Below, piece by piece: positions 7,071-31,644 of a DNA stretch of 38,955 nucleotides (positions within the stretch are counted from its first letter, which is position 1; the number at the start of each line of letters is the position of its first letter). The position numbers and the translations under genes were made by a program. The notes under the pieces are model-generated. The model ran no database searches. It was not told the origin of the DNA and saw only the letters and a program-made list of their open reading frames with translations. Where the stretch lies: IMG/VR virus record IMGVR_UViG_2939127364_000004, one strand, 5' to 3'. The stretch comes from a virus. Taxonomy: Duplodnaviria; Heunggongvirae; Uroviricota; Caudoviricetes.

Positions 7071-8372
7071 TTAAATCCGAAGTGATGTGACTCTTCCGGT
7101 CGGTTTGACAATAGGGAATTGCTTAACGATGAAATAACCTCCGGCATCATTCGGGTGATCATTGCCAGATTTTTTATCAGGCTCCCCCTTCTCATCCCAG
7201 ACCTGTTGCTCCAGAGATTCGGCATATAACGGGCAACGCTTCACATTAACTTTATAGCGACGCTCACCATTGGCATTGCAGAACATTGCATTCATTGAGT
7301 TAACGCGATCTTTTACTGGCGGGTTCGAGCTGTTCACCACAACGTTAAAACCAGCCTGCTTAAGCTGGGCTATATCCGTCGTACTTGCGTTACTTGATTT
7401 TCTGGAATCCCCGGAAGCATCTGGATAAATATAAATTTCCCTCACTTTCCGGTAATCATTCCCATCATACAGCCAGAAGCGTTCTTTAATGATGCGGATC
7501 ATATCCGGCGTATCGTAGGCATTGATGATTTCAGTTACCGCACATGGAAGCCCCAAACGCAGCACATGGACGATTCCCGCCATCTTTCCAACGTTAAAAT
7601 CCATCCCAATATAAATCGGCTCCCCTGGCTGCTCCACTTCTTCGCAATTATTCAGTTTCCGGTCAAACTGATGGTAAACAGTACCACTTGTCAGGTTAGT
7701 AAACTGTCCTCGAAGATAGGCTTTAATCAGCTCTGGAGGGTATGATTCAAGAAGCGAAGGAATGTAATCTGCTGGCAGGTTCTTTTCATTATCGAAAGTA
7801 GATGCCTGCACCAGACCATACAGTGAGGCCAGCTCTGTTTTTTCACGCACGGCTTTAACAAACTGCTCGTAGACAAATTTGAATCCTTCCGGCGTGGTTG
7901 TAACGTCAATACCGTTGCGAAGTCCATCAATCTTATAACGCATACGTGCAATTATCTTGCGCCACGCCGTTCTGGCTTTTTCCTTCGGCAAAATGTCCAG
8001 TTCATCCACCAACGCATTACCAATTTTGAAACCGACGATCGTTTGTGGCTTCTCCATCGATCTGCAGATAGTGGTTCCCCGATACTGGCGTCCGTAATAA
8101 AAGTGAACCTCTTTATTTCCCTCATTAATTTTTACGTTCAATCCCCAGTCAGCAGCAACTTCTTCCACTGTAGGGTAAAAAATATCGCGAATTTGGGGAT
8201 ACGTTGGCGCAAAATATCCCTGATTTATACCTGGATGCTCCCAAATCCCCTTGCATATGCCGCCACACCCAACCCATGTTTTGCCCGAGCCAAAACCAGC
8301 AATATAGGCTTTAAATTTATGGGGCATTGAAAGAAATCGCGCCTGAGGCACATTAAGCGTCGGAGAGATCAT
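7071..8372 (-). CDS. Terminase large subunit
   Basis: Walker A motif GFGSGKT near N-terminus, nuclease-like C-terminal half; AAGGAG SD gives best spacing (8 nt) to ATG at 8372; ORF track extends to 8381. Confidence 0.85.
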   Translation of the reverse strand: MISPTLNVPQARFLSMPHKFKAYIAGFGSGKTWVGCGGICKGIWEHPGINQGYFAPTYPQIRDIFYPTVEEVAADWGLNVKINEGNKEVHFYYGRQYRGTTICRSMEKPQTIVGFKIGNALVDELDILPKEKARTAWRKIIARMRYKIDGLRNGIDVTTTPEGFKFVYEQFVKAVREKTELASLYGLVQASTFDNEKNLPADYIPSLLESYPPELIKAYLRGQFTNLTSGTVYHQFDRKLNNCEEVEQPGEPIYIGMDFNVGKMAGIVHVLRLGLPCAVTEIINAYDTPDMIRIIKERFWLYDGNDYRKVREIYIYPDASGDSRKSSNASTTDIAQLKQAGFNVVVNSSNPPVKDRVNSMNAMFCNANGERRYKVNVKRCPLYAESLEQQVWDEKGEPDKKSGNDHPNDAGGYFIVKQFPIVKPTGRVTSLRI

Positions 8373-9447
8373 CTTCATCACTCCTTACTCTGGCATCAAC
8401 CACATTAATATTGATCGCCACAGGCTGGGGATGTTCATTATCTTCCACCGTTTCGATCTCTTTGCGCAGCTTCTGGTTTTCCATTCTGCGCCGTTCAATT
8501 TCCAGTTCCTGTAGCCGTTTATCTGCACATAAAGCCCCGCCAGCAGAAAACAAACGCAACAATTCACGCCGGGCGGCAGCCTTATCCTCCAGCAGGATCT
8601 CAACGCCGAATTTTCCGAATTTTGCCCCTGCATATAATTGCCGCGCATCCCCATCAAGCAGAGTGGTATCAGCCATATAAAGCTGTCCCGTTCCCTCACC
8701 GCAGCACTTCGGGCAGTCCGGATTGGGTATGGCGTTATCAACAAAGCCGAGGCCTCCATATTCCGGTTCGGGTTTGCCATCTCTGGAAGCCTGCGCCGCT
8801 GCCTTGTCGAATTCTGCTATATCGCGCCACTGGTAGAGATGATTCTCGCCCCAGCAATAACGGCAGTTAACACGGCGAAATTGTGCAAGCTGATTGGGGT
8901 CGGCCAGGACAATAGCCATCAACTGACTCACTAGTAAATCCAGGTCTGCGGTATAGCGTTTCTGGTACTGATTGCGGAAGTAGCTGATAGCGCGAAAAAC
9001 CCTGGCATTTCTAAGCATACGACTGGCGTTGCTGTTAGCTGTCGCACCTTGCCCCTCATAACCGGCTAGTCGGTACGCCTCTGTCGGCTTTTTACCCTGA
9101 GCAACAAGCATCGCAAACTTAGCCTGCTGGTCAGAAATGCCGAATTCATCGGGACAGAACGAAAATTCCTCCGCGTCGCCCTCATTCAGGCCCGCATCGA
9201 ATACTGGCTTTTTTTCCTGAGATTTTTCGTTCCGCTTTTGTGCAGTCTGCGCAGATTTTTTCTGCGCACTTTTTTGCGCAGTTTTGCACATTTCTGTCTG
9301 CGCATTTTTCGGAGTTTTTTTGATGTAACGACGGGCTGTTGCGTAATTCAGTCCCCTTGCTTCACACCATGCCACCGGAGATATACCGGAGCGGGTGTAT
9401 TCAGCAATATACTCCTGCTGCAACGCCCCCCAGTCCGGTCTGCTCAT
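8353..9447 (-). CDS. Terminase small subunit with long C-terminal extension carrying a Cys cluster
   Basis: N-terminus LQQEYIAEYTRSGISPVAWCEARGLNYATARRY matches TerS HTH pattern; 364 aa is about twice typical TerS length; C-terminal CRYCW ... CPKCCGEG. Confidence 0.6.
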   Translation of the reverse strand: MSRPDWGALQQEYIAEYTRSGISPVAWCEARGLNYATARRYIKKTPKNAQTEMCKTAQKSAQKKSAQTAQKRNEKSQEKKPVFDAGLNEGDAEEFSFCPDEFGISDQQAKFAMLVAQGKKPTEAYRLAGYEGQGATANSNASRMLRNARVFRAISYFRNQYQKRYTADLDLLVSQLMAIVLADPNQLAQFRRVNCRYCWGENHLYQWRDIAEFDKAAAQASRDGKPEPEYGGLGFVDNAIPNPDCPKCCGEGTGQLYMADTTLLDGDARQLYAGAKFGKFGVEILLEDKAAARRELLRLFSAGGALCADKRLQELEIERRRMENQKLRKEIETVEDNEHPQPVAININVVDARVRSDEDDLSDA

Positions 9448-9450: not shown

Positions 9451-9702
9451 TTAGTCCTGATTTTTATCCACCCTGAGTAGTTCGCGCAGAGCAAAGGCAT
9501 CCCCTTTTCTGGCAAGCTTAAACAATGCCGCTCGTAACTCGGCTTCACCTTTCGCTCTGCCCTTACGGATGGCCGCATAAAAATCTGTCATTGCTTCCCG
9601 ATTTTCTTTCAGTCGGTTCAGATCAACATCCAGAACGTCAGCGATTTGTTGTGCAGTCATCCGGCACGCTGCCAGAGACTCGACTTTCGAATACGGAATC
9701 AT
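9451..9702 (-). CDS. Small HTH-like protein (83 aa) directly upstream of terminase small subunit
   Basis: ATG 9702 with GGGGGTGA SD; MTAQQIADVLDVDLNRL helix-turn-helix-like segment; first 21 codons overlap the 3' end of the upstream gene. Confidence 0.4.
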   Translation of the reverse strand: MIPYSKVESLAACRMTAQQIADVLDVDLNRLKENREAMTDFYAAIRKGRAKGEAELRAALFKLARKGDAFALRELLRVDKNQD

Positions 9703-10570
9703 TTGTCACCCCCATTGATATGCAGGGTGTCTTCTTCCTGTATTTTTCGTGAAGGATTTTTACTGCAGCGTTGTTCCAGGTGACCTGATGGTGAATGCGT
9801 TTATGGCTGGCACCCATCAGTGAGATTTTTACGCACGACGGCGCATACATGACGGAGTAAAAACTTTTAACGTAGGTTCCGGAATCCAGATACAGCTCGG
9901 TCATTCCGCCGCTGTTTTTCTGCGTCTGTTTCTGCCCTAACTGGACAGCACCGATCGTCATAAACAATTCACCACAGCGACCGAGATTCGTGTACGTATT
10001 CACATCCTCGTTAATGCGCCCCATGAATGAGAACGGTCGATCAACCGAACAGATAAAGCTGTTCATTGCCTTGCGTTTCACCCACGAAGCATGGCCGCCA
10101 TTGTCACCAAGAAAATCCCCGCCCTGCGACATAGCGATGGAAAGAGCAGGTATTGATTCGTAGTACGCCAGCATTTCAGAAAGGATCGCATCCAGTTTCC
10201 TTATCGGAAAATAGGCCTGGTCATAGTTGCGATCCACCCGAAACTGGAACTCGTGATAATCATCATCGAGCTGAATGAAGTATTTACACCCGACCAGTTT
10301 TGCCAGGTCGAAACAGGCATTACGGGCGTAAAAAATTGAGCGGCGGTCACAGAAATTATCGGCTTCGTCAAAACGACTGGCGATATCGGCTTTGGAAAAC
10401 ACCAGCACCTGTTCACCAAATTCAGCCATGTACTGATTCCGTGTCTTATCTTCATCATCAACAACGATAAAAATTTTCCCGGTATAGCCAGCACGACGCA
10501 ACGTCCGGTAAGTCAGAACTTTGTCCGGTCGCCCGTGAGTCAGAATAAAGGCGCAAAAATCATCACGCAT
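9638..10570 (-). CDS. GT-A-fold-like nucleotide-sugar transferase candidate (310 aa, soluble)
   Basis: ATG at 10570 with perfect AGGAGG SD; motif order FILTHGRP, IVVDDED, IQLDDDY (DXD) at GT-A-like spacing; no predicted TM segments; start overlaps ParB-like stop by 8 nt. Confidence 0.4.
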   Translation of the reverse strand: MRDDFCAFILTHGRPDKVLTYRTLRRAGYTGKIFIVVDDEDKTRNQYMAEFGEQVLVFSKADIASRFDEADNFCDRRSIFYARNACFDLAKLVGCKYFIQLDDDYHEFQFRVDRNYDQAYFPIRKLDAILSEMLAYYESIPALSIAMSQGGDFLGDNGGHASWVKRKAMNSFICSVDRPFSFMGRINEDVNTYTNLGRCGELFMTIGAVQLGQKQTQKNSGGMTELYLDSGTYVKSFYSVMYAPSCVKISLMGASHKRIHHQVTWNNAAVKILHEKYRKKTPCISMGVTNDSVFESRVSGSVPDDCTTNR

Positions 10571-11354
10571 ATTCCTCCTCCTCACCACCATGCATGATCT
10601 CCACCATGCGCTGCGTCATCCGGACAAATCCATTTTCAATAGCCTGCTGATAATCAATGATCACCAGCGCCGACTCCTCGAAAAAACACTGAATTTCAGA
10701 GGGGGCGTGAGCGTAATAGTCCGCAATTCTGCTGAAATTAAACACCGTGTGACGTTCTGCCGCACACAGGAGGAATTTCTCAATATCAGGCTCAAGGGAC
10801 GCCGAACGTATCCGGCTGATCAGCTCCTGAGTTTTCGTATCGTCGTACAGTTCACTGATATCCGGTTTACCGCCCGACGGCTCATAAACAGGCGTATCAA
10901 TTTTCGTCGTATACGGCTCCTCCTCATTTCCTGTACCGGGCAAAACATCCGTCAACAGTTCATCAATTTCTGTCGGGATGAAGCCTGTCAGGGAGACATC
11001 AAAATCAGCATTGATTAGGTCCGACAGCTCCATCCGCAACAGATCTTCATCCCAGCCAGCATTCATCGGCAGGCGATTATCTGCCAGGCGGTACGCCTTT
11101 TTCTGCTCATCCGTCAGGCCAGACAGAACAATGACCGGAACAGAATCCATTTTGAGCATTTCAGCCGCCATAACACGACCGTGACCCGCAATAATTTCGC
11201 CCTTTTCGTCAATCAGCACCGGATTAGTCCAGCCGAATTGCTTAATACTTTCTACCAGTTGTGCCACCTGCTCAGGGCTGTGCGTCCTGGCGTTGTGCGC
11301 ATACGGTGACAATTCTTGTAATGGGCGATAGACTATCTTTAATTTCTCGCTCAT
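10563..11354 (-). CDS. ParB-like nuclease domain protein (ParB/Srx fold N-terminal domain plus uncharacterised acidic C-terminal domain)
   Basis: N-terminal VYRPLQELSPYAHNARTHSPEQVAQLVESIKQFGWTNPVLI ... GHGR is the ParB N-terminal signature; 263 aa. Confidence 0.7.
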   Translation of the reverse strand: MSEKLKIVYRPLQELSPYAHNARTHSPEQVAQLVESIKQFGWTNPVLIDEKGEIIAGHGRVMAAEMLKMDSVPVIVLSGLTDEQKKAYRLADNRLPMNAGWDEDLLRMELSDLINADFDVSLTGFIPTEIDELLTDVLPGTGNEEEPYTTKIDTPVYEPSGGKPDISELYDDTKTQELISRIRSASLEPDIEKFLLCAAERHTVFNFSRIADYYAHAPSEIQCFFEESALVIIDYQQAIENGFVRMTQRMVEIMHGGEEEEYA

Positions 11355-11370: not shown

Positions 11371-11405
11371 AATAAAACGCACCCCAGCAGCCAGTGCTAC
11401 TGGGG
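11371..11405 (-). terminator. Intrinsic terminator downstream of trkG
   Basis: Minus strand CCCCAG-loop-CTGGGG hairpin followed by TGCGTTTTATTCAT. Confidence 0.5.
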
Positions 11406-11491: not shown

Positions 11492-12949
11492 TTAGGAGCG
11501 CCAAAAAAAACCTGAAAACAATATAATAACAGGATAAATTTCAAGGCGACCAAGAATCATAGCTATGCACATTAAACATTTTGCAATGTCATTAAGCACT
11601 CCGAATGACGATGCAGTAGCCCCAAAACCTAATCCCATATTATTAATACATGCAGCCACTGTTGCAAATGATGTAAGAAAATCATATCCCATACCATTTA
11701 ACACCAGTATAAAAAACACCGTGAAGAGAGTATAAAGAAAAAAGAAACTCCATACAGACCTCATTACACGATCTGTAACTATCTTCCCTCCTACATTTAC
11801 ACTCAACAACGCTCTGGGATGAGAAAGCTGATTTATCTCGTGTTTGCTTTGTTTGAAAAGTATAAGAAATCGAAGTGACTTAATTCCACCACAAGTTGAA
11901 CCTATACATCCCCCAAAGAAACTTGACAACAGCAAAAACACTATCGTGTGCGTGGGCCAACTTGCATAATCCTGCGTAGCTAAACCATTATCAGTGAGCA
12001 TGGAGCTGGCAAGAAAAAACGAATGAATAAAACTTCCATGCAAGTCATACATACCTATATGCCAGACCTGGAAAGAGGTAACAATGATCACCCCTAAGGC
12101 TATTAACAGAAAGAAACGAAGTTCAATATCTCTGATTAAAGGTTTTATCGTTTTCCTGCTAATAACAATATACCAAAGAGTGAAGTTGAAAGCCGATAGC
12201 AGGGAAAAAGAACCAGCCACCAGCTCAACCAAATAGTTATTAAAATATCCGATACTCTCGCTATGAGTTGAGAAACCACCAAGCGAAACTGTGGAAATCC
12301 CGTGACAAATAGCATCAAACAAAGGCATTCCTGCAAGTCTATAACAGACAATACAAGCAATACCTAATAAAGAATAAGTTATCCACAGTGTCCGTGACGT
12401 ATCGGCCAGGCGGGGAGTGAGTTTGTCATCCTTAAATGGCCCCGGCATTTCTGACTGATAAAGCTTTGCACCACCAATACCCAATAATGGCAATACAGCA
12501 ACCGCCAGAACAATAACTCCTAAACCACCTATAAAATTTAACTGTGACCGATAGTACAAATATGCCCGAGGTAATGAACTAACATCATCAATTACAGTTG
12601 CTCCTGTTGTTGTTATTCCAGAAACCCCTTCAAACAGAGCATCAATGAACGTTAAATTAAGTTCTGAGTCAATCCATAAAGGGAATGCACTAATAACAGA
12701 AAACAAAATCCAAAACATTACAATTATAATAAACCCATCACGGGTACGTAATTGAATGCCAGATTTCTTAGTTGTATACCACGCTCCGCCACCAATGCAA
12801 AAAAATATAACGAAAGTTATAAAGAAAACGAACAGGCTTTTTTCTTTATAAAACAATGCTACAACCATTGGTGGCAACATTGAAAGACTATAGAGCCAAA
12901 CCAGGAACCCACACATATGAGTAACAACTCTTACATGAGATGTATTCAT
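11492..12949 (-). CDS. trkG: Trk-system potassium uptake protein TrkG (prophage moron)
   Basis: 485-aa polytopic membrane protein from ATG 12949 (MNTSHVRVVTHMCGFLVW...), matches recalled Rac TrkG; visibly AT-rich versus flanking phage genes. Confidence 0.9.
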   Translation of the reverse strand: MNTSHVRVVTHMCGFLVWLYSLSMLPPMVVALFYKEKSLFVFFITFVIFFCIGGGAWYTTKKSGIQLRTRDGFIIIVMFWILFSVISAFPLWIDSELNLTFIDALFEGVSGITTTGATVIDDVSSLPRAYLYYRSQLNFIGGLGVIVLAVAVLPLLGIGGAKLYQSEMPGPFKDDKLTPRLADTSRTLWITYSLLGIACIVCYRLAGMPLFDAICHGISTVSLGGFSTHSESIGYFNNYLVELVAGSFSLLSAFNFTLWYIVISRKTIKPLIRDIELRFFLLIALGVIIVTSFQVWHIGMYDLHGSFIHSFFLASSMLTDNGLATQDYASWPTHTIVFLLLSSFFGGCIGSTCGGIKSLRFLILFKQSKHEINQLSHPRALLSVNVGGKIVTDRVMRSVWSFFFLYTLFTVFFILVLNGMGYDFLTSFATVAACINNMGLGFGATASSFGVLNDIAKCLMCIAMILGRLEIYPVIILFSGFFWRS

Positions 12950-13086
12950 ATCTAAATATTCTTTCAATTATAACCACCTTGCTGCAATATTATGATTATA
13001 CTGTATAAAATTTAACTCCTCTTAGATCTTACTTCACTGTTCCTTATGAAACAATCATCAAAATGAATCATATTGTAGTTAAGATT

Positions 13087-13551
13087 TTACTTTAAACACT
13101 GCTCGGTTATGTATTGCTGAGCACCTTCAAGTTGGGCCTGCATCATTACCAGTCGTTCCCGGAGGGTGAAATAATCCCGTTCAGCGGTGTCTGCCAGTCG
13201 GGGGGAGGCTGCATTATCCACGCCGGAGGCGGTGGTGGCTTCACGCACTGACTGACAGACTGCTTTGATGTGCAACCGACGACGACCAGCGGCAACATCA
13301 TCACGCAGAACATCATTTTCAGCTTTCGCATCAGCTAACTCCTTCGTGTATTTTGCATCGAGCGCAGCAACATCACGCTGACGCATCTGCATGTCAGTAA
13401 TTGCCGCGTTCGCCAGCTTCAGTTCTCTGGCATTTTTGTCGCGCTGTTCTTTGTAGGCGATGGCGTTATCACGGTAATGATTAACACCCCATGACAGGCA
13501 GACGACGATGCAGATAACCAGAGCGGAGATAATCGCGGTTACTCTGTTCAT
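13087..13551 (-). CDS. Spanin inner-membrane subunit Rz
   Basis: N-terminal TM helix then coiled-coil; ATG 13551 overlaps endolysin stop (ATGA). Confidence 0.8.
13146..13331 (-). CDS. Spanin outer-membrane lipoprotein Rz1, embedded in Rz in +1 frame
   Basis: 61-aa ORF inside Rz; lipoprotein signal with lipobox VVGC; proline-rich mature part ([15 protein letters not shown]). Confidence 0.75.
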
Positions 13552-14045
13552 TGCTGACCCCACAAACAGATTTCACGCTCAATCTCACGACGAGTCATGA
13601 GACCTTTCCATTGCTTACCGCCAGCATATGTCCAGCGACGTAGCTGATCACATGCGCCTTTGATATCGCCCTGGTTTATTTTGCGAAGAAGCGTCGATGT
13701 TCTGAAATTGCCAGCACCCACGTTGTAAACGAATGAGTAAAGAGCGCCGCGCGTTGTTTCCGGTATATCGACTTTGATGTACGGGTTAATTTGTCTGGCG
13801 ACCGTGGCAAGGTCTTTATTCAGGAGGGCTTTGCATTCTGCTTTGGTATACGTTTTACCGAGCATGATGTCTTTTCCTGTATGCCCGTGACATACAGTCC
13901 ATACACCAACAATATCTTTGTATGGTATGTAGCTGACACCTTCCAGACCATCGTTACCACTTGGGCCAGTGATTAACACTGATGCTATAGCAATTGCTCC
14001 GCCACCAATAGCAGCAGCAACGACTTTTCGTAATGATGGAGGCAT
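13548..14045 (-). CDS. SAR endolysin (phage 21 R-type lysozyme with signal-arrest-release N-terminal domain)
   Basis: [39 protein letters not shown]... near-identical to recalled phage 21 R; start overlaps holin stop (TAATG). Confidence 0.9.
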
Positions 14046-14260
14046 TATTCACCTCTCGCAGCCTTGCGCTTATCTTCTTTAATCTTGAAATAAAGGTTTG
14101 TCAGGTACGTCAGCAGGCCAAATACCAGACTACCCAGCACACCGATTGCAGCCCACTGTGACGGAGTTACTCTATCGAGCAACTGTAAAAACCAGTAGCC
14201 AGCACTGCCTGCGGAGGTGCCGTAGGCAATGCCTGTTGAAATTTTGTCCATGGATTTCAT
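14045..14260 (-). CDS. Class II pinholin S21 with dual-start motif (MKSMDK)
   Basis: [26 protein letters not shown]... two TM domains; GGAGGT SD; near-identical to recalled phage 21 S. Confidence 0.9.
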
Positions 14261-14311
14261 AGCCTCACCTCCGCACGGAACGGATGGCATAGTTATTATG
14301 TGGATTCGCCC

Positions 14312-15217
14312 CTATATTTCCAGACACCTGTTATCACTTAACCCATTACTGGCCCGCTGCCGCAGATATTCCCGTGGCGAGCGATAACCCAGCGCACTAT
14401 GCGGATGCCATTCGTTATAATGCTCGAACGCCTCTGCAAGGTTCTTTGCTGCCGTTAACCCGTCTGGTTTGGGCATGATACTTATGTAGTCACGCTTTAT
14501 CGTTTTCACGAAGCTCTCTGCTATTCCGTTACTCTCCGGACTCCGCACCGCCGTGTTCTTCGGTTCAAGTCCCAACATCCTGGCGAACTGACGTGTTTCA
14601 TTCGCCCGGTAGCATGAACCATTATCCGTCAGCCACTCCACTGGAGACGCCGGAAGCTCGCTGCCAAAGCGGCGTTCCACTGCTCCCAGCATGACGTCCT
14701 GTACTGTTTCACTGTCGAAACCCCCCGTTGTGACCGCCCAGTGCAGTGCCTCACGGTCACAGCAGTCCAGCGCGAACGTGACCCGCAGTTTTTCTCCGTT
14801 ATCACAGCGGAACTCAAACCCGTCAGAGCACCATCGCTGATTACTTTCTTTCACAGCCACTCTGCCGGTATGTGCCCGTTTCGATGGCGGTACAGCGGGT
14901 TTTCGCTCAAGCAACAGCGCATTCTGGCGCATGATCCGGTAAACACGTTTGGCATTGATCGCAGGCATACCATCAAGTTCCGTCTGTCTGCGAAGCAGCG
15001 CCCATACCCGACGATAACCATATGTGGGCAGCTCTCCGATAACATGGTGTATACGGAGAAGCACATCCGTATCATCAGTGTGACGACTGCGGCGGCCATC
15101 CATCCAGTCATCGGTTCGTCTGAGAATGACGTGCAACTGCGCACGCGACACCCGGAGACAACGGCTGACTAAGCTTACTCCCCATCCCCGGGCAATAAGG
15201 GCGCGTGCGCTATCCAC
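14312..15217 (-). CDS. insD: IS2 transposase OrfB (InsD)
   Basis: 301-aa [33 protein letters not shown]..., DDE integrase-type catalytic region. Confidence 0.9.
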
Positions 15218-15540
15218 TTTTTTGCCCGTCCATATTCAACGGCTTCTTTGAGGAGTTCATTTTCCATCGTTTTCTTGCCGAGCAGGCGCTGGAGTTCTTT
15301 AATCTGCTTCATGGCGGCAGCAAGTTCAGAGGCAGGAACAACCTGTTCTCCGGCGGCGACAGCAGTAAGACTTCCTTCCTGATATTGCTTACGCCAGAGA
15401 AATAACTGGCTGGCTGCTACACCATGTTGCCGGGCAACGAGGGAGACCGTCATCCCCGGTTCAAAGCTCTGCTGAACAATTGCGATCTTTTCCTGTGTGG
15501 TACGCCGTCTGCGTTTCTCCGGCCCTAAGACATCAATCAT
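15175..15540 (-). CDS. insC: IS2 OrfA (InsC) HTH protein
   Basis: 121 aa from ATG 15540, [41 protein letters not shown]... Confidence 0.9.
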
Positions 15541-15694
15541 CTGTTCTCCAATGACTAGTCTAAAAACTAGTATTAAGACTATCACTTATTTAAGTGATAC
15601 TGGTTGTCTGGAGATTCAGGGGGCCAGTCTATTATGTGTAGGCTTTCAGACACATCAATCAGAGCCTTAATTGATATATATGCTGGAGACGATG

Positions 15695-15847: not shown

Positions 15848-16243
15848 CTAACCTCGCATGTCAAAGCCAGATTTCTGAAAATCTCTGTAGACTTCCGGAT
15901 TGTTGAAGGCCGGAAATTTGGCTTTATGAGCTGCGGACTTTATCGCTTCGCAATAGGCTTTATCACCGTTACTGGTAGATATTTTTAACGCCGTGCCATC
16001 CTGAGAGAATTCCATATGCAACCTGCATTTTTTCCCTTTCCAGTTATGCGGCTCATCAAGTTTGGCATTAATTGCAGCTCTGATTCCCCGCGCTTGCGCC
16101 CCCCATTCATCCTGATCATCCCAGCGTCCTGAACTGCAACTACCTGTAGCAGTAGTTTTGTGGCAATCTGAAGGGTGTAAAGGTGTGCATCCCGCAACAA
16201 AACCGACCCAAAAAGTCAACATAACGATTTTCTTTAATCCCAC
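15848..16243 (-). CDS. Lipoprotein with TolA C-terminal domain III-like domain (paralog 1)
   Basis: GTG start 16243 with GAGGAG SD; signal peptide MGLKKIVMLTFWVGFVAGC (lipobox VAGC); C-terminal KGKKCRLHMEFSQDGTALKISTSNGDKAYCEAI...PEVYRDF aligns with TolA-III and with paralog 2. Confidence 0.7.
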   Translation of the reverse strand: MGLKKIVMLTFWVGFVAGCTPLHPSDCHKTTATGSCSSGRWDDQDEWGAQARGIRAAINAKLDEPHNWKGKKCRLHMEFSQDGTALKISTSNGDKAYCEAIKSAAHKAKFPAFNNPEVYRDFQKSGFDMRG

Positions 16244-16323: not shown

Positions 16324-17518
<1,195 letters not shown>

Positions 17519-17592: not shown

Positions 17593-18021
17593 TCAGGGTT
17601 TAAAATCCAGCACCCCATTTTGAAATACTTTATATACTTCCGGCGAAGGGGGGGCAGGTATATCAGCATTCTTTATCGCATTCATCGCTTCACGACATAA
17701 ATCGAGGTCTCCACTTTCTCTTTTAACCTCCAGTAGAAGGCCATTCGGGGCCATATGCATTCTCAGTGTACACTCTTTTCCTGAATACTTACTCGCATCC
17801 CCGAACTGTTTTTCGATGGCGCTCTTGATTTGATGGGCATACAGACGGATATCCTCACTAACATCAGAAGTACGTTCAGATGAACTCACATACTGTGTCT
17901 CTATTGCTTTATCGGAGTAATATGATGTACGGTCATGATAATTTGTCGATACAGCATCAGTGCACCCGATAATAATCCCACTAATAATCAACGTAAGAAT
18001 TGATGCGCTACGAAAACCCAT
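17593..18021 (-). CDS. Lipoprotein with TolA C-terminal domain III-like domain (paralog 2)
   Basis: ATG 18021 with GAGGA SD; signal peptide MGFRSASILTLIISGIIIGC; C-terminal YAHQIKSAIEKQFGDASKYSGKECTLRMHMAPNGLLLEVKRESGDLDLCREAMNAIKNADIPAPPSPEVYKVFQNGVLDFKP is roughly half identical to recalled E. coli TolA residues ~335-421. Confidence 0.75.
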   Translation of the reverse strand: MGFRSASILTLIISGIIIGCTDAVSTNYHDRTSYYSDKAIETQYVSSSERTSDVSEDIRLYAHQIKSAIEKQFGDASKYSGKECTLRMHMAPNGLLLEVKRESGDLDLCREAMNAIKNADIPAPPSPEVYKVFQNGVLDFKP

Positions 18022-21838: not shown

Positions 21839-23038
21839 ATGCCATTTGTTATTTATGTGTTTACTATCAGTGCCTTTGCGCTCGGACTCGCGGAATTTGT
21901 CCCCATTGGGCTGACAGACGTTATGGCTCAGGGGTTGTGTGTGGGTGTGGAGCAGACCGGGGCAGCGGTTACAACCTATGCACTGGGGGCAACGTTCGCG
22001 GCACCCGTACTGTCTGCGCTGACAGCAAGCTGGAGCCGGAAAAATGTAATGCTTACAACTGCCGTTGTGTTTACTGCCGGTAGTCTGGCGGCCGCGTTTG
22101 CAGCCACATTACCTCAGCTCCTGTTAGCGCGGTTCATTGCTGGTCTGGGACACGGCCTGTTTCTGGCTGCGGCATCCAGTACCGCAGCTCGTCTTGCTGG
22201 ACCGGGTAAAGCAGGCAGAGCGGTGGCTGTGGTATTTGGTGGCTTTACTCTGGCGATGGCAATCGGCGTACCGCTGAGTACATGGTTGGGGGGGGTGGTC
22301 TCATGGCGTCCAGTTCTCGGCGCTATTGCCGCTTTTGGCGCGTTCGGATTCCTTGGACTGTTGTTCGGTATGAAAGATCCCGTACGCAGCGTGCCCGGTG
22401 AACATAGTGACTCAGCAATGCAGAATATCGGCATGCTGTTTAACCGTAAGTTGCTGGCCGGCGCGCTGGTTACGGTGCTGGCGTATGCAGGCTCGTTTAC
22501 GGATTACACCTTTATCGCACCTATTCTGACGCAGGTGACAGGGGTTACCGGAGCAACGGTGAGTCTGTTTATGCTGGTTTACGGTATTACAGCTGCGGTA
22601 GGTAATATTCTTGGTGGGAAACTTACCGACAGCATGGGGGTTAATCGTGCCAATATACTCATCATTAGCGGCATTGTTGTTGTCGTGCTTGGTATGTGGC
22701 TGCTGTCATCCTCACCGGTGAGCATGGGCATTCTGGTTGCGCTGCTGGGTATGGTGACATTTGCCGCAGTGCCGGCACTGCAGGCCCGTCTGATTGGTGT
22801 CGCTGAGCAACATGCTCCTCATGCGCATGGTGTTGCTGCCGGCCTGAATATTGCGGGCTTCAACTCAGGTATAGCGCTGGGATCAGTACTGGGCAGCATT
22901 ACTATAAGCCACGCCGGTATCGTGTATACCGGTATCAGCGGTGCGATTGTTTCTCTGCTCGGCCTGCTGTTGCTGCTTGCACAAATCCGTCGCAGCCACA
23001 GTCGTAAATTTCAACAGGTTAAAATCGTAGGCCAGTAA
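21839..23038 (+). CDS. MFS transporter (12-TM, 399 aa)
   Basis: AGGAG SD; hydrophobic 12-helix pattern, Gly/Ala-rich, central cytoplasmic loop. Confidence 0.8.
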   Translation: MPFVIYVFTISAFALGLAEFVPIGLTDVMAQGLCVGVEQTGAAVTTYALGATFAAPVLSALTASWSRKNVMLTTAVVFTAGSLAAAFAATLPQLLLARFIAGLGHGLFLAAASSTAARLAGPGKAGRAVAVVFGGFTLAMAIGVPLSTWLGGVVSWRPVLGAIAAFGAFGFLGLLFGMKDPVRSVPGEHSDSAMQNIGMLFNRKLLAGALVTVLAYAGSFTDYTFIAPILTQVTGVTGATVSLFMLVYGITAAVGNILGGKLTDSMGVNRANILIISGIVVVVLGMWLLSSSPVSMGILVALLGMVTFAAVPALQARLIGVAEQHAPHAHGVAAGLNIAGFNSGIALGSVLGSITISHAGIVYTGISGAIVSLLGLLLLLAQIRRSHSRKFQQVKIVGQ

Positions 23039-23049
23039 AGGGAGGTTAT

Positions 23050-23742
23050 ATGCTTACCCGTGAAAATATGCTTAATGGCACATTTGTCAGGGTGCATGAA
23101 GCGCTGCTCCCGGCGAATATGCTCTGGGACGCTGAAAAAATACGCGCATCAATGAACTCTACTCTGGAGGAGCGCCCGACGGGTGCTCCTGTCTGGATAT
23201 TTGCCTACGGGTCATTGATGTGGAATCCCGTGCTGGCGATTGAAGAAATGCAACGGGCCCGTCTGAAAGGATGGCAGCGCAGTTTCTGCATTCGTTTGAT
23301 ATCCGGACGAGCGACTCCTGATGTCCCCGGCAGGATGTTATCGCTCGACGAAGGTGGAATTACCGAAGGTATTGCGTTCAGACTGCCGGAATCGACTCTT
23401 ATTAATGAGCTGGAAATTGTCTGGACGCGCGAGATGATAACCGGTCTTTACCGTCCGGTCTGGGCAGACGTTTCGCTAGGAAACGGTGAGGAAATTCAGG
23501 CGCTGGCTTTCGTATCAGACAGACTGCATCCGCATTATGAACAGGACAATCTTACAGCGACCGTAGCGTTGAGCATCGCATCTGCCCGTGGAGACATTGG
23601 CACGAATGCAGATTATGTATGGAAACTGCAGGCCACTCTGGGTGCGTTGGGAATACGGGATGATTACGTGAGTGAACTGGCCCTTGCTCTGCATGAGGCT
23701 CCCTGTAACGATAAACTTCATCAGCGAGGCGCTTCACTATGA
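23050..23742 (+). CDS. ChaC-family gamma-glutamylcyclotransferase-like protein
   Basis: GGAGG SD; WIFAYGSLMWNP (YGSL motif) and overall similarity to ChaC; 230 aa. Confidence 0.7.
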   Translation: MLTRENMLNGTFVRVHEALLPANMLWDAEKIRASMNSTLEERPTGAPVWIFAYGSLMWNPVLAIEEMQRARLKGWQRSFCIRLISGRATPDVPGRMLSLDEGGITEGIAFRLPESTLINELEIVWTREMITGLYRPVWADVSLGNGEEIQALAFVSDRLHPHYEQDNLTATVALSIASARGDIGTNADYVWKLQATLGALGIRDDYVSELALALHEAPCNDKLHQRGASL

Positions 23743-24620
23743 GCCATCTGAGCCATCTGCGAACGTTTCTTGAGGCCTATCGCTCTGGCTCCTTTTCAAA
23801 GGCGGCAGAACTACTGGGCATCACTCAGCCCGCGGCGTCACAGCATATCCAGTCTCTTGAGACTCTGGTTGGTAAGCGTCTGTTTATCAGGCAGGCCAGA
23901 GGCGTGACGGCAACCGAAGCTGCGGATGAGCTTGCCCGCTCAGTTTCACCCTTCATTGATGGTCTGGAAGAAAAGCTGTCCTCTTTCCGGTCAGGCTCTG
24001 TACGCGGGGGAACAATTAATCTGGCAGGACCGCCAGATTTTATTCATTCCCGGCTTGGGACAGTAATGGCTCCACTAATGAAGGAGGGGTATCGCCTACG
24101 CTTTCATACCGGCAATAAGCAACGTATTTATTCCCTTTTGCATGACGGGAGCGCCGATCTCGCTGTTACCGCATCTATGCCTGATGACCGTCTGTACGGC
24201 TATGCACATCTACTGACTGAACGCATGCTCCTTGTTCATGCTCCCGCCATGTCAGAGATCATCGGATCAGAACCTGGTGCTGAAACGCTTGCCTCATTAC
24301 CGCTGATTGCTTATGACGAAGAGTTGCCACTGATTAGAGCGCTCTGGGCCTCCATGTTTCAGAGAGCCCCTGAGATGCAGGCTACATTCACCATTCCGGA
24401 TTTACGTATTATCCGCGACTTGGTCTGTGACGGCCACGGGTGGACAGTGCTGCCGGATTATCACTGTGACAATGACCTGAAAAGTGGTCGCCTGATTTCA
24501 GTGACACCTGCAGACCTCGCTCCGACTAATCATCTTTATCTGGTCTGGAACAAAAGGACGGCTAATAACAGCCGAACCGCCTATGTTCGGGATTACATTC
24601 TTAAAACGTTTCCGCGTTGA
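23739..24620 (+). CDS. LysR-type transcriptional regulator
   Basis: N-terminal HTH LRTFLEAYRSGSFSKAAELLGITQPAASQHIQSLE; start overlaps ChaC stop (ATGA). Confidence 0.85.
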   Translation: MSHLSHLRTFLEAYRSGSFSKAAELLGITQPAASQHIQSLETLVGKRLFIRQARGVTATEAADELARSVSPFIDGLEEKLSSFRSGSVRGGTINLAGPPDFIHSRLGTVMAPLMKEGYRLRFHTGNKQRIYSLLHDGSADLAVTASMPDDRLYGYAHLLTERMLLVHAPAMSEIIGSEPGAETLASLPLIAYDEELPLIRALWASMFQRAPEMQATFTIPDLRIIRDLVCDGHGWTVLPDYHCDNDLKSGRLISVTPADLAPTNHLYLVWNKRTANNSRTAYVRDYILKTFPR

Positions 24621-24750
24621 TGTTTGAAACGGATGATTGGCGATGCGTATCATAAGTTACGTATGTCCGCTTCTGGCACAAAGCAGACGCCCACTCTCAC
24701 GCGAATGCTTTGCCCTTGACTTGCCAACAACCGTATCGCTTGCTCCGCAA

Positions 24751-26043
24751 CTATGGTTTTTTATTAGAATCTTCGCCACTAAATAAATTATAATAAATTG
24801 ATTTTATTAGATATCTGTCAGAATCTATATGGTCAGCACGAGTAGCATGCTCTAATGTTTCAAATGCTAGGGTTTGTGCGGCTTCAGCAAAAATTCCAGG
24901 CCAACCCTTACTCAGCATCGACAGTCCTTTAAGTACCCTTATCTGAATTTCCCTCATACTGGCACCATCGCGCGCAACAGGTGAGAAAAAGTCTTCAAGT
25001 AGATCGTTATTCTGAAGTGGTGCAACATGTACAGAAGGATATTTCACTTCTATTTCATCAGATTTATTCTGCGCGTAAGCGGAAAGTATACGTACACCTC
25101 TGCCAATGACATCAATGGCGGTTCCTGGATCGTTCACTGCGGGGGAAAGGGCTCGGCAGGCTATTTCGGCCATGACGCTAAGACAAAATCGGGGGTCCTG
25201 AGCAAATGAACGTACATCCGAGACAATAATCGTCTCAAGTAAATCGGTGCTGATTGATGACTCCTGGCCCTGACTCAGGTACAAAACTGGCGTGGACGGA
25301 TGTATGAAACTGCCCGGCTGCGCCACGAGGTATACATGACGGGGATCATTGGTCAGCAGCTTGCTGAGTTTCACCATATCAACATATTCAACATAGCCAA
25401 TCTTTTTCGGATAAACTGCAACCGTTCCTTTCGGCTGTTCATTGTTCTCAAGCCATGGATATCCGCCGAGACAGGGATTTCTTGCTCTCGCAATAAATGT
25501 TTCGATGGCCGCCTGTTCTACTTTTGCCGTTGTCTCACCAACCCTCCCCAGAGAGGTCAAATGCTGTATCCAGCGAAGCAATGTGATGAGGATTAAGGCA
25601 ATGACAACCAGTGTTACAATGAATAAAATGACTCTCCCCCTTTCTCCATAAGCTCCCATATTGAGGGCAATAATCCCTACCAGACTGAAGAGAAAAGAAC
25701 CGATGAAGGTGGCCAGTACATTTTGTGTGGTGACGTCTTCAACAACTAAACGAGTAGCTCTGGGAGTCACATTAGTAGTGGCTGAACCGTAGGCTGTGAC
25801 CATGATGCTCAGCGAAAATGTGGTCACTGCCAGCATACTCGATGCCAGTATGTTCAGAATGTTATCGACTGCTTCCGCACCAACCTTCACGGAAACCGAC
25901 TCAGGTATCATTGATTTAAAAAGAATTGATAAAAGGGCCGTTATTATTGCGACAATTGCGAATAACGTTGCCCTGAACCATAGTTTTTTAAATGTCTGCT
26001 TCAGCATCCATTTCCAGCGTGAAATCATTCTGCATTCCCTCAT
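24751..26043 (-). CDS. DUF2254-family membrane protein (N-terminal TM domain plus soluble C-terminal domain)
   Basis: 430-aa ORF with 4-5 N-terminal TM helices; family from recollection; alternative start at 26028 has better SD. Confidence 0.5.
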   Translation of the reverse strand: MRECRMISRWKWMLKQTFKKLWFRATLFAIVAIITALLSILFKSMIPESVSVKVGAEAVDNILNILASSMLAVTTFSLSIMVTAYGSATTNVTPRATRLVVEDVTTQNVLATFIGSFLFSLVGIIALNMGAYGERGRVILFIVTLVVIALILITLLRWIQHLTSLGRVGETTAKVEQAAIETFIARARNPCLGGYPWLENNEQPKGTVAVYPKKIGYVEYVDMVKLSKLLTNDPRHVYLVAQPGSFIHPSTPVLYLSQGQESSISTDLLETIIVSDVRSFAQDPRFCLSVMAEIACRALSPAVNDPGTAIDVIGRGVRILSAYAQNKSDEIEVKYPSVHVAPLQNNDLLEDFFSPVARDGASMREIQIRVLKGLSMLSKGWPGIFAEAAQTLAFETLEHATRADHIDSDRYLIKSIYYNLFSGEDSNKKP

Positions 26044-26063
26044 ATTGCAGCCGGGATAAATAA

Positions 26064-26084
26064 ATGCCGCCTCTGTGGCGGCAT
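26064..26084 (-). terminator. Intrinsic terminator downstream of BCCT transporter gene
   Basis: Minus strand ATGCCGCC-acaga-GGCGGCAT followed by TTATTTAT. Confidence 0.5.
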
Positions 26085-26091
26085 GTTGCTG

Positions 26092-28892: not shown

Positions 28893-29963
28893 TTACCCCC
28901 TGAAGCCCGGCGGAATTTCGTTATCCGGTTCAGAAATATGATTCACACAACGCTGGTTGTTCGTGCCGCTTACCGGGAGCAACCAGGGGTTCTCAAAATT
29001 CCGGTCCGGTCCAAAAAACGTCGTCGCTCGCTGAACAAATTCCGTTCCCGTTTTCCCGGTAGCCGCCAAGTATCTTGCGTAACGCCTCACGCCATCCAGC
29101 ATGGCCTCTGGTGGCACCCCCTCGCGTAATCTGGCCTTCCAGGCACTGAAAGCGGATTTCTTCGGGTTTGCCCCAGCACGCAACGGGTACTCCCGCCAGA
29201 CCTGTTCGAACACATCCGGATAATCCACTCGTCCCACAGACTGCCCGGTGTTTTCCGGGACTACCCGATCGGCTTCCCGCTGAATGGCGGAATCGGCTTC
29301 AGGCTGCTGCAGTTGGTGTGATTGCTCCGCCCTTGCGGTCATCACCTGCTGCACAGCGCCCGAATCGGCTTTCAGCGCATACGCTGAATCGGCTTCCGGT
29401 GTCGTGCCTGCTGGCTGACCAAGATTGACGGTCTGAACATCCCCTGCCTGGTTCGTGGCGTTTTTTACGCCATGGACCATAGTGTTTTGATCTTCTTGAT
29501 CTGTATCTTTATCTGTATCTTTATCTGTCGTGACTCGTCGTGACATGTGCGTGACATTTCGTGACGCGCCGTGACAATCGCCATTTTGTTCCCGCTTTCT
29601 TTCCCTCTCTCGCTGCGCCCTCTTGCGCTCTGCAGGAGATTTTGCGGTTTGCGAAATATTGCCGTTGTCCTCTTTAAGCACCTGGCGTTTTTCCCATCCA
29701 GTGATTAAATCACCATCAAGTACCCGCCCCTGCATCGTCTGCAAAATTGAATCAATTACCTCTTCTGTCACGTCGAGCGCACTTGCCAAATCTTCTGTCG
29801 TGACATCAATGTGACCTCGCGTGACATTTCGTGACGCGCTCACCAGGAGGTGGATATACACTGCCATCACTGTTGCAATTGGCTGTCCTGACACCCTGGC
29901 AATTGTTCGCCACTTAGGGTCATTTGGCATGTCATGCCATAATCTGAGCCAGGCGTTAGCCAT
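28893..29963 (-). CDS. Lambda O-like replication initiator with internal origin iterons
   Basis: ATG 29963 (AGAGGTGA SD); two GTGAC iteron clusters inside the coding sequence; synteny after cro/cII-like genes. Confidence 0.6.
   Translation of the reverse strand: MANAWLRLWHDMPNDPKWRTIARVSGQPIATVMAVYIHLLVSASRNVTRGHIDVTTEDLASALDVTEEVIDSILQTMQGRVLDGDLITGWEKRQVLKEDNGNISQTAKSPAERKRAQRERERKREQNGDCHGASRNVTHMSRRVTTDKDTDKDTDQEDQNTMVHGVKNATNQAGDVQTVNLGQPAGTTPEADSAYALKADSGAVQQVMTARAEQSHQLQQPEADSAIQREADRVVPENTGQSVGRVDYPDVFEQVWREYPLRAGANPKKSAFSAWKARLREGVPPEAMLDGVRRYARYLAATGKTGTEFVQRATTFFGPDRNFENPWLLPVSGTNNQRCVNHISEPDNEIPPGFRG
29500..29575. repeat. Origin-like iteron cluster 1: 12-bp direct repeat TCTGTATCTTTA x2.5 followed by five GTGAC repeats at 10-11 bp spacing
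   Basis: GTGAC at 29530, 29540, 29551, 29561, 29571. Confidence 0.6.
29800..29839. repeat. Origin-like iteron cluster 2: four GTGAC repeats at 10-11 bp spacing; contains a 20-bp exact copy of part of cluster 1
   Basis: GTGAC at 29800, 29811, 29821, 29831; CGTGACATTTCGTGACGCGC present at 29550-29569 and 29820-29839. Confidence 0.6.
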
Positions 29964-30034
29964 ACTCACCTCTTTTGATACCGAATCTTTTTACTCACAA
30001 ATTGCCGGAAGTGATCCGGTATGAATATTGCGAG

Positions 30035-30725: not shown

Positions 30726-30754
30726 AGCTACTCCTTAGTAAACACAGCAAAGAA

Positions 30755-30830
30755 TACCCATAGGTAAACAAAAGTCAATACCCACAGGTTGTTTACCTTG
30801 CAGTAATCGCATCTATTATTTACCTATGGA
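30755..30830. promoter_or_regulatory. OR-like operator cluster: three copies of 12-bp near-palindrome TACCCATAGGTA in the divergent repressor/cro intergenic region
   Basis: TACCCATAGGTA 30755-30766, TACCCACAGGTT 30779-30790, TTACCTATGGAC ~30819-30830; TATTAT -10 hexamer directly before repressor ATG. Confidence 0.5.
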
Positions 30831-31245: not shown

Positions 31246-31287
31246 CTCACCAAACAACTAGTCACCAGTTAAGACACCGCAAAAAGT

Positions 31288-31634: not shown

Positions 31635-31644
31635 GATTCGCAAA

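Follow-up and report, generated by a model that had tools for sequence, protein, structure and literature searches.

The question raised by this locus is what a ParB-like protein and a glycosyltransferase-like protein, encoded by overlapping genes, do for a tailed phage next to its terminase. The window, i.e. the whole 38,955-nt stretch of viral DNA analyzed, belongs to a Rac-type E. coli prophage and carries three co-oriented genes on the minus strand between a trkG moron (11492-12967) and terS, as reported in a preliminary description of the sequence. They encode a 263-aa protein, hereafter the partner (10563..11354), a 310-aa transferase (9638..10570), and an 83-aa protein (9451..9702); terS (8353-9447; Terminase_2, phrog_51) and terL (7071-8381; Terminase_6N/6C) follow. 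The pair formed by partner and transferase sits within the late lysis-packaging operon, downstream of a Q-like antiterminator region. A terminator-like hairpin on the minus strand between trkG and the partner gene (11382..11405; 10-bp stem with 7 G-C pairs, then a T-rich tail) is a consensus match only, and is given as context. The observations of the preliminary description are confirmed; its interpretation, in which the pair would serve DNA or virion glycosylation or an anti-defence function, is partly supported by the data below.

The stop of the partner gene overlaps the start of the transferase gene, as described earlier. The transferase ATG (10570-10568) lies 8 nt within the end of the partner gene (TGA at 10565-10563), the junction sequence being GAGGAGGAGGAAT-ATGCGTGA. 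In this region (10563..10583, minus strand) a Shine-Dalgarno-like run in the last codons of the partner, GAGGAGGAGG (GAGGAGG, 10574-10583), lies ahead of the transferase ATG and is followed by ATGCGTGA. The transferase open reading frame spans 317 aa (9638-10591), 310 aa if counted from the ATG at 10570. The latter start is the real one, because transferase homologues begin with MRDDF as well. The overlap is mostly 1-7 nt in homologous gene pairs.

The transferase matches the TAGT family over nearly the whole profile in Pfam searches (PF20691, profile positions 4-205 of 205; 121 bits vs. a cut-off of 27.5, E 8.4e-35). The catalytic motifs of the family are R...DDD...ED(Y/F). Alignments of 68 and 16 sequences show no or hardly any variation at R14, D102-D103-D104 and E188-D189; a V follows E-D in this clade, the third motif being E-D-V rather than E-D-Y/F. 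The FILTHGRP, IVVDDED and IQLDDDY stretches, from which a GT-A layout had been suspected, are all present and fall on the conserved columns R14, D38/D41 and D102-D104. Conservation is confined to a core, residues 1-279 (nt 9734-10570); the tail that follows (residues 280-310) is not conserved, becomes disordered at about residue 288, and extends into the next gene. The protein adopts the GT-A (nucleotide-diphospho-sugar transferase) fold, and resembles glycogenin structurally, a likeness generic to this fold. Judged by fold, family and catalytic motifs, the 310-aa protein is a soluble GT-A glycosyltransferase of the TAGT family, which may transfer sugar to DNA. TAGTs such as the T2/T6 enzyme and the metagenomic phage GT-A 5hmC glycosyltransferases share with it profile, GT-A fold, R...DDD...ED motifs, phage origin, solubility and a size of about 285 aa. 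Searches of the PDB by sequence with the profile of the clade gave chance-level matches only. A tblastn search of 50,697 phage records (E 1e-5) returned Escherichia/Salmonella, Lactobacillus, Vibrio, Haloarcula, Porphyromonas and Nocardia phages plus one uncultured phage only; since matches are confined to these six host groups and the uncultured phage, the transferase appears to represent a distinct TAGT clade.

The partner matches ParB_N (PF02195, residues 23-90; 28.9 bits vs. a cut-off of 26.3), in line with the ParB/Srx-type N-terminal domain recognized earlier, and phrog_620 (E 8.5e-91). It is conserved over its full length between E. coli, Lactobacillus phages and a halovirus. The acidic character already noted holds for the whole 263-aa protein (pI 4.49, net charge -25), and pI values range from 4.05 to 4.8 across partners. 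Residues 1-140 (10935..11354, minus strand) form a ParB/Srx NTP-binding-type module with a short helical extension, and align to the Spo0J/ParB structures 1vz0, 4umk and 6sdk. The NTP-pocket diverges from the canonical residues of CTP binding and hydrolysis, GHGRVMAA replacing the GERRxRAA of Box II: the Glu is changed to H58 and the first Arg to G59, R60 being kept. The Q of Box I is changed to N21, N93 of Box III is kept. NTP binding by the module is possible. No helix-turn-helix family was matched in Pfam searches of the partner, its score against TIGR00180 (38.5 bits) is below the cut-off (58.45), and neither the scanned ORFs of the window nor the annotation of the corresponding region in strain CD09 includes a parA-type gene. 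The partner therefore has in common with the partition ParB of ParABS systems the N-terminal domain, but lacks a detectable HTH, a full-length TIGR00180 score and a ParA. Being acidic and devoid of an HTH match, it does not suggest direct DNA binding. "Nuclease", the name under which the protein had been introduced, is a historical label, given the GHGR for GERR pocket and the missing HTH.

The same N-terminal module is fused to phage DNA methyltransferases. The module matches phrog_498 "DNA methyltransferase" (E 1.2e-50) and the N-terminus of PADLOC MTase_II (E 2.2e-38), matches to methyltransferase families ending at about residue 144, and no methyltransferase Pfam domain was matched in the partner. 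A tblastn search with the module hit 407 phage records, many annotated as methylases, at identities up to about 50%. The ParB_N-DNA methyltransferase fusions found in phages carry a homologous N-terminal module of about 140 aa and are located directly upstream of terminase, where they head the packaging operon as the pair does here. The association of ParB-type modules with methyltransferases beside terminase, anticipated in the preliminary description, is thus borne out. In the partner, the methyltransferase domain of the fusions is replaced by a different C-terminal domain, and catalysis would come from a separate, overlapping glycosyltransferase gene. A putative allelic ParB-methyltransferase cassette at the E. 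coli locus (match H20) proved to be a deletion remnant of Rac.

Module and C-terminal domain are joined by the peptide Y148-T-T-K-I-D-T-P155-V-Y157-E-P (10878..10913, minus strand). Its Y, P and Y residues are invariant in 110 sequences, partners lacking the ParB module included; in the partner modelled alone the peptide is predicted to be disordered (pLDDT 50-65). The core of the C-terminal domain (residues 166-263; 10566..10859, minus strand) is small and helical, and is the better conserved half of the protein: K174, R201-H202 and D234 are invariant, Q222 and E226 nearly so. The domain is not of the ParB dimerisation type, and had no Pfam, PDB or fold match, PDB profile searches giving chance-level matches only. 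A ferritin-like or metal-site reading, based on the conserved R-H, E and D, was discarded, as the Glu ahead of R-H varies and no match in structure supports it. At least 1189 clusters at 50% identity contain the domain.

This domain had been set aside earlier as one of unknown function. Profile searches agree that it has no described relative in Pfam, PDB or fold collections, but it is the key element of the locus. The C-terminal-domain gene lies upstream in 80 of 80 IMG/VR loci seeded with the TAGT, and conversely a TAGT is found within 2.5 kb in all 79 loci seeded with the domain, adjacent or overlapping in 66. Among cultured phages, all 28 records containing the domain fall among the 36 containing this TAGT clade. 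The domain is the obligate partner of the clade, with or without a ParB module, and its identification as such is the main new result of this analysis. The ParB module is optional: it is present where the pair heads the packaging operon, and absent where the pair resides among replication genes, the stand-alone partners adjoining DNA polymerase A, primase, RecA and beta-clamp-like genes.

The pair is found in viruses of E. coli, Lactobacillus, Nocardia, Vibrio, Porphyromonas and Haloarcula, virulent-type and very large phages included (e.g. 191-kb Vibrio phages and c5). Of 5426 complete E. coli genomes, 866 carry the intact region, as do 10 phage records, at identities of at least 99.8%. Not all Rac-type prophages have the cassette; in K-12 MG1655 an 87-aa ynaK (264 nt) followed by ydaY is what is left, in agreement with the fragments expected there. 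The pair is flanked solely by packaging or replication genes, and the terminases next to it are of at least five types (Terminase_6N, Terminase_3, TerL_ATPase, GpA, Sf6-type). No third gene recurs beside the pair in 135 related loci, among 25 listed of 91 Pfam families. The Pfam scan covered 121 neighbour-cluster representatives, with the same 25 of 91 families listed, and a dioxygenase or hydroxymethylase may in rare cases co-occur in metagenomic loci. Elsewhere, genes are inserted or fused within the pair, encoding a nucleotidyltransferase and a phosphatase, CofD and an NTP-transferase, a radical SAM enzyme, a SAM methyltransferase, or a P-loop domain, in what looks like pathway-like elaboration. 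The region can be described as a mobile cassette of two phage genes.

Partner-assisted, post-replicative glycosylation of phage DNA is the most likely function of the pair, with a probability of about one half. Transfer of sugar onto phage DNA is the activity of characterized TAGT members, and the pair is linked to DNA by a ParB module held in common with phage DNA methyltransferases, as by the location of stand-alone partners in replication modules. The C-terminal domain and the Y..P.YEP peptide would dock onto the transferase, and activate or target it; through the ParB/Srx module, the enzyme would gain access late in infection to phage DNA that is double-stranded and already replicated. Sugar added to phage DNA before or during packaging may protect it against host nucleases. 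Physical interaction of the two proteins, DNA as target, sugar donor and acceptor atom are what we infer. Changes in the NTP-pocket (Glu to His, one Arg to Gly) count against this mechanism, as do the strong acidity of the partner and its lack of an HTH.

The role assigned to the ParB module is likened to the activation of the phage thymine dioxygenase 5mYOX176, which requires a ParB-like protein to act on double-stranded DNA (PMC13229309). ParB176 is made up, as the partner, by a nucleotide-binding domain, a linker and a C-terminal domain, with no DNA-binding domain, and GT, ParB and terminase genes frequently co-occur at 5mYOX176/ParB176 loci (PMC13229309). In contrast, ParB176 serves a 5-methylpyrimidine dioxygenase, whereas the partner adjoins a TAGT and no dioxygenase was detected in the ORFs scanned. 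For stand-alone partners, which adjoin beta-clamp-like and polymerase genes, an analogy is offered by the T4 alpha-GT, which, according to PMC13216743, acts with the replisome and so depends on a DNA-tracking machine for its access to DNA; unlike the transferase, this enzyme has a GT-B fold and acts on 5hmC. A dedicated partner domain, always present in this clade, is not mentioned for characterized TAGTs in the literature consulted. Iyer and colleagues, said to have defined the TAGT family in 2013, may already mention ParB neighbours. Literature searches on ynaK, on GREB1 with ParB and on HHTV-2 DNA modification gave nothing relevant.

All characterized relatives depend on a hydroxyl group, be it that of 5hmC, of 5hmU or of an attached sugar. 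Among the window ORFs that were scanned, Pfam revealed no TET/5mYOX, hydroxymethylase or methyltransferase, nor is any annotated in the neighbouring tail region or in c5 and phi jlb1, complete phages that carry the pair as well. Similarly, no alpha-GT or beta-GT was found in the ORFs scanned or is annotated in the neighbouring tail region. That no hydroxymethyl-base pathway was detected counts against glycosylation of DNA, and the authors of the metagenomic survey regard GT contigs lacking 5mYOX or ThyS as less likely DNA modifiers. Such a setting is common: about 65% of GT contigs have no neighbouring 5mYOX or ThyS (bioRxiv 10.1101/2023.12.21.572611), and solitary TAGTs are reported in 288 of 753 TAGT-encoding phage genomes (PMC13216743). 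The T2/T6 beta-glucosyl-HMC-alpha-glucosyltransferase acts on alpha-glucosyl-5hmC and needs both a 5hmC pathway and an alpha-GT, neither of which was detected here; the PHROG-derived name "beta-glucosyl-HMC-alpha-glucosyltransferase" is unjustified for this transferase. As a tentative proposal, the pair might put sugar directly on canonical, non-hydroxymethylated DNA, or on some other universal feature of DNA. In this case the partner domain would make the GT-A enzyme competent for duplex DNA, brought there by the replisome or, at packaging, by the NTP-dependent module of ParB type.

Target of the transferase could be a protein, either the partner itself, at the invariant Tyr/Ser/Thr residues of Y-[ST]-x5-P-x-Y-E-P in a glycogenin-like reaction, or some other protein of phage or host, in which case the ParB module would serve e.g. 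nucleotide sensing. The kinetoplastid base-J glucosyltransferase (JGT) and GREB1 share with the transferase a GT-A/TAGT-type catalytic domain, and the PGAP name of the E. coli transferase is "GREB1-related protein". The metagenomic survey reports JGT as the eukaryotic enzyme closest in structure to phage GT-A DNA GTs. JGT depends on 5hmU made by JBP dioxygenases. The animal protein GREB1, in work by Shin and colleagues dating to 2021, reportedly glycosylates a protein, which counts against DNA as target; to our knowledge, neither JGT nor GREB1 has a ParB-like partner. Protein glycosylation is nevertheless rather unlikely: the glycogenin likeness is that of any GT-A fold, the N-terminal module of the partner is that of DNA methyltransferases, stand-alone partners sit among replication genes, and no role for a glycosylated ParB-like protein fits both bacterial and archaeal viruses.

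It is improbable that the pair, instead of modifying the phage genome, is an anti-defence enzyme acting on another nucleic acid or a small molecule (tRNA, a nucleotide, an immune signalling nucleotide). The missing hydroxymethyl-base pathway would be accounted for, small-molecule kinases are found among ParB/Srx folds, which bind CTP, ATP or GTP (PMC12704722), and nucleotidyltransferase and phosphatase genes are inserted at some loci. Yet no TAGT is known to have such a target, donor-sugar synthesis is the simpler explanation of the inserted genes, and a pair so strictly tied to packaging or replication modules would be expected to act on the phage genome.

The position of the pair directly upstream of terS, a cos site located 80 nt upstream of the ParB-like gene in phage c5, and the "ParB-like nuclease" label of databases fit a packaging or partition nuclease assisting terminase at cos/pac, the transferase being an unrelated cell-surface enzyme of lysogenic conversion. 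E. coli ETEC4071 makes this highly improbable: the same 83-aa, terS and terL genes work there with the pair missing. By this comparison of gene content the pair is shown to be dispensable for this terminase and packaging, in line with the earlier view of it as more than a packaging nuclease. Moreover, terL has a nuclease domain of its own, stand-alone partners lacking the ParB module lie far from terminase, and 100% pairing with overlapping reading frames does not suit unrelated proteins. The transferase is soluble and encoded in a late operon, and the Gram-positive, Gram-negative and archaeal viruses involved have no common surface acceptor. The 83-aa gene, which ETEC4071 has together with the terminase genes but without the pair, is thus part of the terminase module rather than the third member of the unit it had been taken for. 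It matches phrog_309 (terminase small subunit, profile positions 145-218, E 8.3e-23), has no Pfam match, co-occurs with terS and terL, and was not seen beside the pair in the other phages examined. Just as remote is a defence of the prophage by glycosylation or marking of superinfecting phage DNA, e.g. of 5hmC phages, an idea raised in bioRxiv 10.1101/2023.12.21.572611 and compatible with T2/T6 TAGT enzymes acting on glucosyl-5hmC DNA and with the optional presence of the cassette in Rac-type prophages, but at odds with a PADLOC scan that gave no match and no defence-system assignment for the transferase, with a late-operon position making expression in lysogens unlikely, and with the occurrence of the pair in virulent-type and very large phages.

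The names "partition protein", "ParB-like nuclease", "beta-glucosyl-HMC-alpha-glucosyltransferase" and "GREB1-related protein", carried by thousands of database entries, fit the pair poorly. TAGTs lacking a hydroxymethyl-base pathway have been flagged as unexplained in recent papers; those of one large clade do not really stand alone, a dedicated, unannotated partner domain being always present. The pair is intact in ordinary E. coli prophages and induced phages, such as the Rac-type phage vB_EcoS-606R9 (ON470581) or that of strain L73, and a fragment only in K-12, which provides a ready genetic background. If sugar is placed on protein, the pair would be a new kind of phage glycoprotein system. 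If it is placed on DNA, the pair would represent a new modification chemistry, and a second case of ParB-type proteins repurposed as cofactors of DNA-modifying enzymes. Should sugar be attached directly to canonical DNA, DNA modification would gain a new chemical class, one encoded by about one in six complete E. coli genomes and shared by tailed viruses of haloarchaea and of both Gram-negative and Gram-positive bacteria.

All genes from the holin-lysozyme-Rz group (13087-14290) to terL (7071-8381) are on the minus strand. Between them lie, in order of transcription, the trkG moron (11492-12967), with a GC content of 0.34-0.40 vs. about 0.49 on either side, a hairpin resembling a terminator (10-bp stem; 11382-11405, same strand) 3' of the moron and just upstream of the ParB-like gene, the 263-aa (10563-11354), 310-aa (9638-10570) and 83-aa (9451-9702) ORFs, and terS (8353-9447). 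The ATG of the 310-aa gene comes 8 nt before the 263-aa gene ends (junction GAGGAGGAGGAAT-ATGCGTGA), is preceded by a strong Shine-Dalgarno-like run, and opens with the MRDDF start common to the protein and its homologues. Gene order, junction overlap and MRDDF start therefore bear out the co-oriented ORFs with overlapping stop and start of the preliminary description. Only two of the three genes grouped there belong together. In E. coli ETEC4071 the pair is missing, and the lysis genes are followed at once by the same 83-aa gene, terS and terL; the 83-aa gene, which has a PHROG terS-segment match and no Pfam match, thus belongs to the terminase module, and the pair is dispensable for packaging. 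The gene downstream of terL in this strain (183-1619 of its locus) occupies the place of the portal-like DUF4055 protein found in the prophage type of the window, and its PGAP annotation as "anti-CBASS protein Acb1 family protein" may be worth checking.

The tail of the 310-aa protein (9641-9772, minus strand) reads into the overlapping 83-aa gene. Residues 280-310, a 31-aa stretch, are not conserved, and residues 288-310 or so are predicted to be disordered. From about nt 9772 the sequence is homologous to that of a prophage without the cassette, which identifies a recombination junction at the cassette's 3' boundary. Of 5426 complete E. coli genomes, 866 have the intact 2-kb region; 10 phage records, nine from induced E. 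coli phages and one from a Salmonella phage, have it at ≥99.8% identity. K-12, as the preliminary description said, retains fragments only, an 87-aa remnant of ynaK and, after it, ydaY.

Upstream of the holin gene the region is broken up by two insertion sequences, an ORF pair (301 and 136 aa; 14312-15585, minus strand) judged by eye to be IS3-type, and an IS5-type DDE transposase (16356-17372, plus strand; Pfam DDE_Tnp_1 and DUF772). Two proteins with a TolA C-terminal domain (15848-16243 and 17593-18021, both minus strand; Pfam TolA, E 1.3e-14 and 2.4e-23) may be Tol-system mimics or superinfection factors. A cargo island within the prophage (21839-28095) encodes two transporters (MFS and BCCT, the latter of betaine/choline type), a LysR regulator, a ChaC-like protein and a DUF2254 membrane protein; the corresponding position in strain CD09 is taken by genes for an ATP-dependent nuclease and a DNA cytosine methyltransferase (29327-32220 of its locus, L001).

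The 310-aa protein, named "GREB1-related protein" in newer PGAP annotation, matches Pfam TAGT (TET-associated glycosyltransferase, PF20691; E 8.4e-35) and PHROG 842 (E 1.2e-103). Columns invariant or nearly so in the homologue alignment (R14, D38/D41, D102-D103-D104, N187-E188-D189, R258/H260/H261) correspond to the R...DDD...ED motifs of phage GT-A DNA glycosyltransferases (bioRxiv 10.1101/2023.12.21.572611). Profile, fold and motifs all place the enzyme in the TAGT family, in agreement with the GT-A transferase proposed earlier, but the contextual feature of the family, association with an enzyme making hydroxymethyl bases, was not found, and the inherited name "beta-glucosyl-HMC-alpha-glucosyltransferase" is unjustified. 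No sequence relatives of the protein or its clade were found among solved structures by PDB profile search. In 50,697 cultured-phage records, tblastn matches at E 1e-5 were confined to phages of six host groups (Escherichia/Salmonella, Lactobacillus, Vibrio, Haloarcula, Porphyromonas, Nocardia) and one uncultured phage. These relatives appear to form a distinct clade within TAGT. Three natural fusions of the clade were observed (L088 6001-7719, L132 7360-8757, L175 7336-8781), one to a C-terminal class-I SAM methyltransferase (Pfam Methyltransf_12/23/25), two to an N-terminal domain of about 185 aa featuring a Walker-A motif and no Pfam match.

Residues 1-140 of the 263-aa protein make up a ParB/Srx-type module (PF02195; phrog_498, E 1.2e-50; PADLOC MTase_II model, E 2.2e-38). 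Relative to Spo0J/ParB structures, Box II GERR is changed to GHGR and the Box I Gln to Asn, the Box III Asn being kept. A partition ParB is ruled out, because no HTH was found in the protein, no ParA among the ORFs scanned in the window or in the annotation of the equivalent CD09 region, and the score against the full-length ParB model TIGR00180 is below cut-off. The same module forms the N-terminus of phage DNA methyltransferases; these fusions sit directly upstream of terminase, and the module detects 407 phage records by tblastn, with identity up to about 50%. According to a survey of the ParB-CTPase fold, fusions to DNA methyltransferases are frequent in phages, and the fold binds CTP, ATP or GTP (PMC12704722).

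In an alignment spanning E. coli, Lactobacillus phages and halovirus HHTV-2, conservation is higher in the C-terminal part of the partner than in the ParB module. The C-terminal part has an invariant peptide, Y-[ST]-x-K-x3-P-x-Y-E-P, and then a helical core in which K174, R201-H202 and D234 are invariant, Q222 and E226 nearly so. At least 1189 clusters carry the domain (phmmer, 1.84 billion representative proteins, E≤1e-3). Most members are 250-300 aa long and carry it C-terminally; a minority of 115-200 aa are stand-alone forms lacking the ParB module, encoded immediately upstream of, and often overlapping, a TAGT gene. All fetched loci were scanned with HMMs built for the three modules. A domain-bearing gene is upstream of TAGT in 80 of 80 TAGT-seeded IMG/VR loci and adjacent in 79; in the remaining one it is 3 kb off, and TAGT is fused to a SAM methyltransferase. 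Conversely, TAGT lies within 2.5 kb in 79 of 79 loci seeded on the stand-alone domain, directly downstream in 66, separated by accessory genes in 11, in reversed order in 2. All 28 cultured phages with the domain (50,697 records) fall among the 36 with the TAGT clade, the other eight having TAGT genes in fragments or, in Porphyromonas, a diverged domain that the HMM still detects. The domain is an obligate partner of the TAGT clade. No third gene recurs with the pair in 135 related loci (best 25 of 91 Pfam neighbour families).

The two forms differ in setting. After dereplication of the TAGT ORFs (80% identity), 56 clusters had the ParB-fused form beside packaging genes and none had it beside replication genes; the stand-alone form was beside replication genes (DNA polymerase A, primase, DnaB, RecA, a beta-clamp-like gene) in 34, beside packaging genes in 8. 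The beta-sliding-clamp-like gene, of a family present in 21 of 135 loci, adjoins the stand-alone partner gene in replication-module loci (L011 5881-6990, L104 6476-7585); its product, of about 370 aa, matches Pfam DNA_pol3_beta at E 7e-5, which is under the gathering score. Packaging modules beside the pair span at least five terminase and several portal families, hence the pair moves as a cassette. In Lactobacillus phage c5 (L009/L010 1-863) only about 80 nt separate the annotated cos site (nt 1-11) from the ParB-like gene downstream, so that no other transcription unit comes between the genome end and the pair.

A partner-assisted, post-replicative DNA glycosylation system is the favoured reading, at roughly even odds. 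Characterised TAGT relatives glycosylate DNA (bioRxiv 10.1101/2023.12.21.572611, PMC13216743); the ParB module of the partner is that of phage DNA methyltransferases at the same position; a ParB-like phage protein, reported in 2026, is required by a DNA thymine dioxygenase for action on double-stranded DNA (PMC13229309); and stand-alone variants sit in replication modules. The dioxygenase-assisting protein has a nucleotide-binding and a C-terminal domain and lacks a DNA-binding domain (PMC13229309), an architecture like that of the 263-aa partner, which differs in its undescribed C-terminal domain and its client enzyme. The C-terminal domain and invariant peptide would engage the transferase, and access to duplex DNA would come from the ParB module or, in the replication setting, from the replisome. 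The pair would be expressed from the late operon, since it is downstream of a Q-like region and the lysis genes, behind the moron hairpin.

The main difficulty for DNA glycosylation lies in the acceptor. No recognisable dioxygenase, hydroxymethylase or methyltransferase was found in the prophage of the window from integrase to tail (Pfam on its larger ORFs, and annotation of the equivalent CD09 region), or by annotation in the complete phages c5 (31.8 kb) and phi jlb1 (38 kb). The strong acidity of the partner proteins (pI 4.05-4.8) is a further difficulty. New chemistry on canonical DNA is one option, less likely than not; a protein acceptor, possibly the partner's own invariant Tyr/Ser/Thr peptide, is another, somewhat less likely still. 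A small-molecule or RNA target and a prophage defence role are less likely, as is a packaging-nuclease role for the ParB-like protein, whose gene lies beside terminase yet is dispensable for packaging; "nuclease" is a label only.

No description of the obligate partner domain, its stand-alone form or the packaging/replication split was found in the literature, Iyer et al. 2013 aside, a work which may mention ParB-TAGT neighbourhoods. As to published work, bioRxiv 10.1101/2023.12.21.572611 and PMC13229309 report that GT, ParB and terminase genes co-occur statistically around 5mYOX (5-methylpyrimidine dioxygenase) genes, and PMC13216743 flags solitary TAGTs as unexplained. Between partner and transferase, inserts were observed of histidine phosphatase (His_Phos_1) plus cytidylyltransferase-like genes (L156, L157, L160, L169, L170; about 945 nt), CofD(+HAD) plus an NTP-transferase (NTP_transf_3; L011, L107, L113, L115) and radical SAM (L114). 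Other accessory genes or domains inserted or fused in some pairs are a SAM methyltransferase, a P-loop domain and a second TAGT. Together they suggest dedicated donor synthesis and further tailoring.
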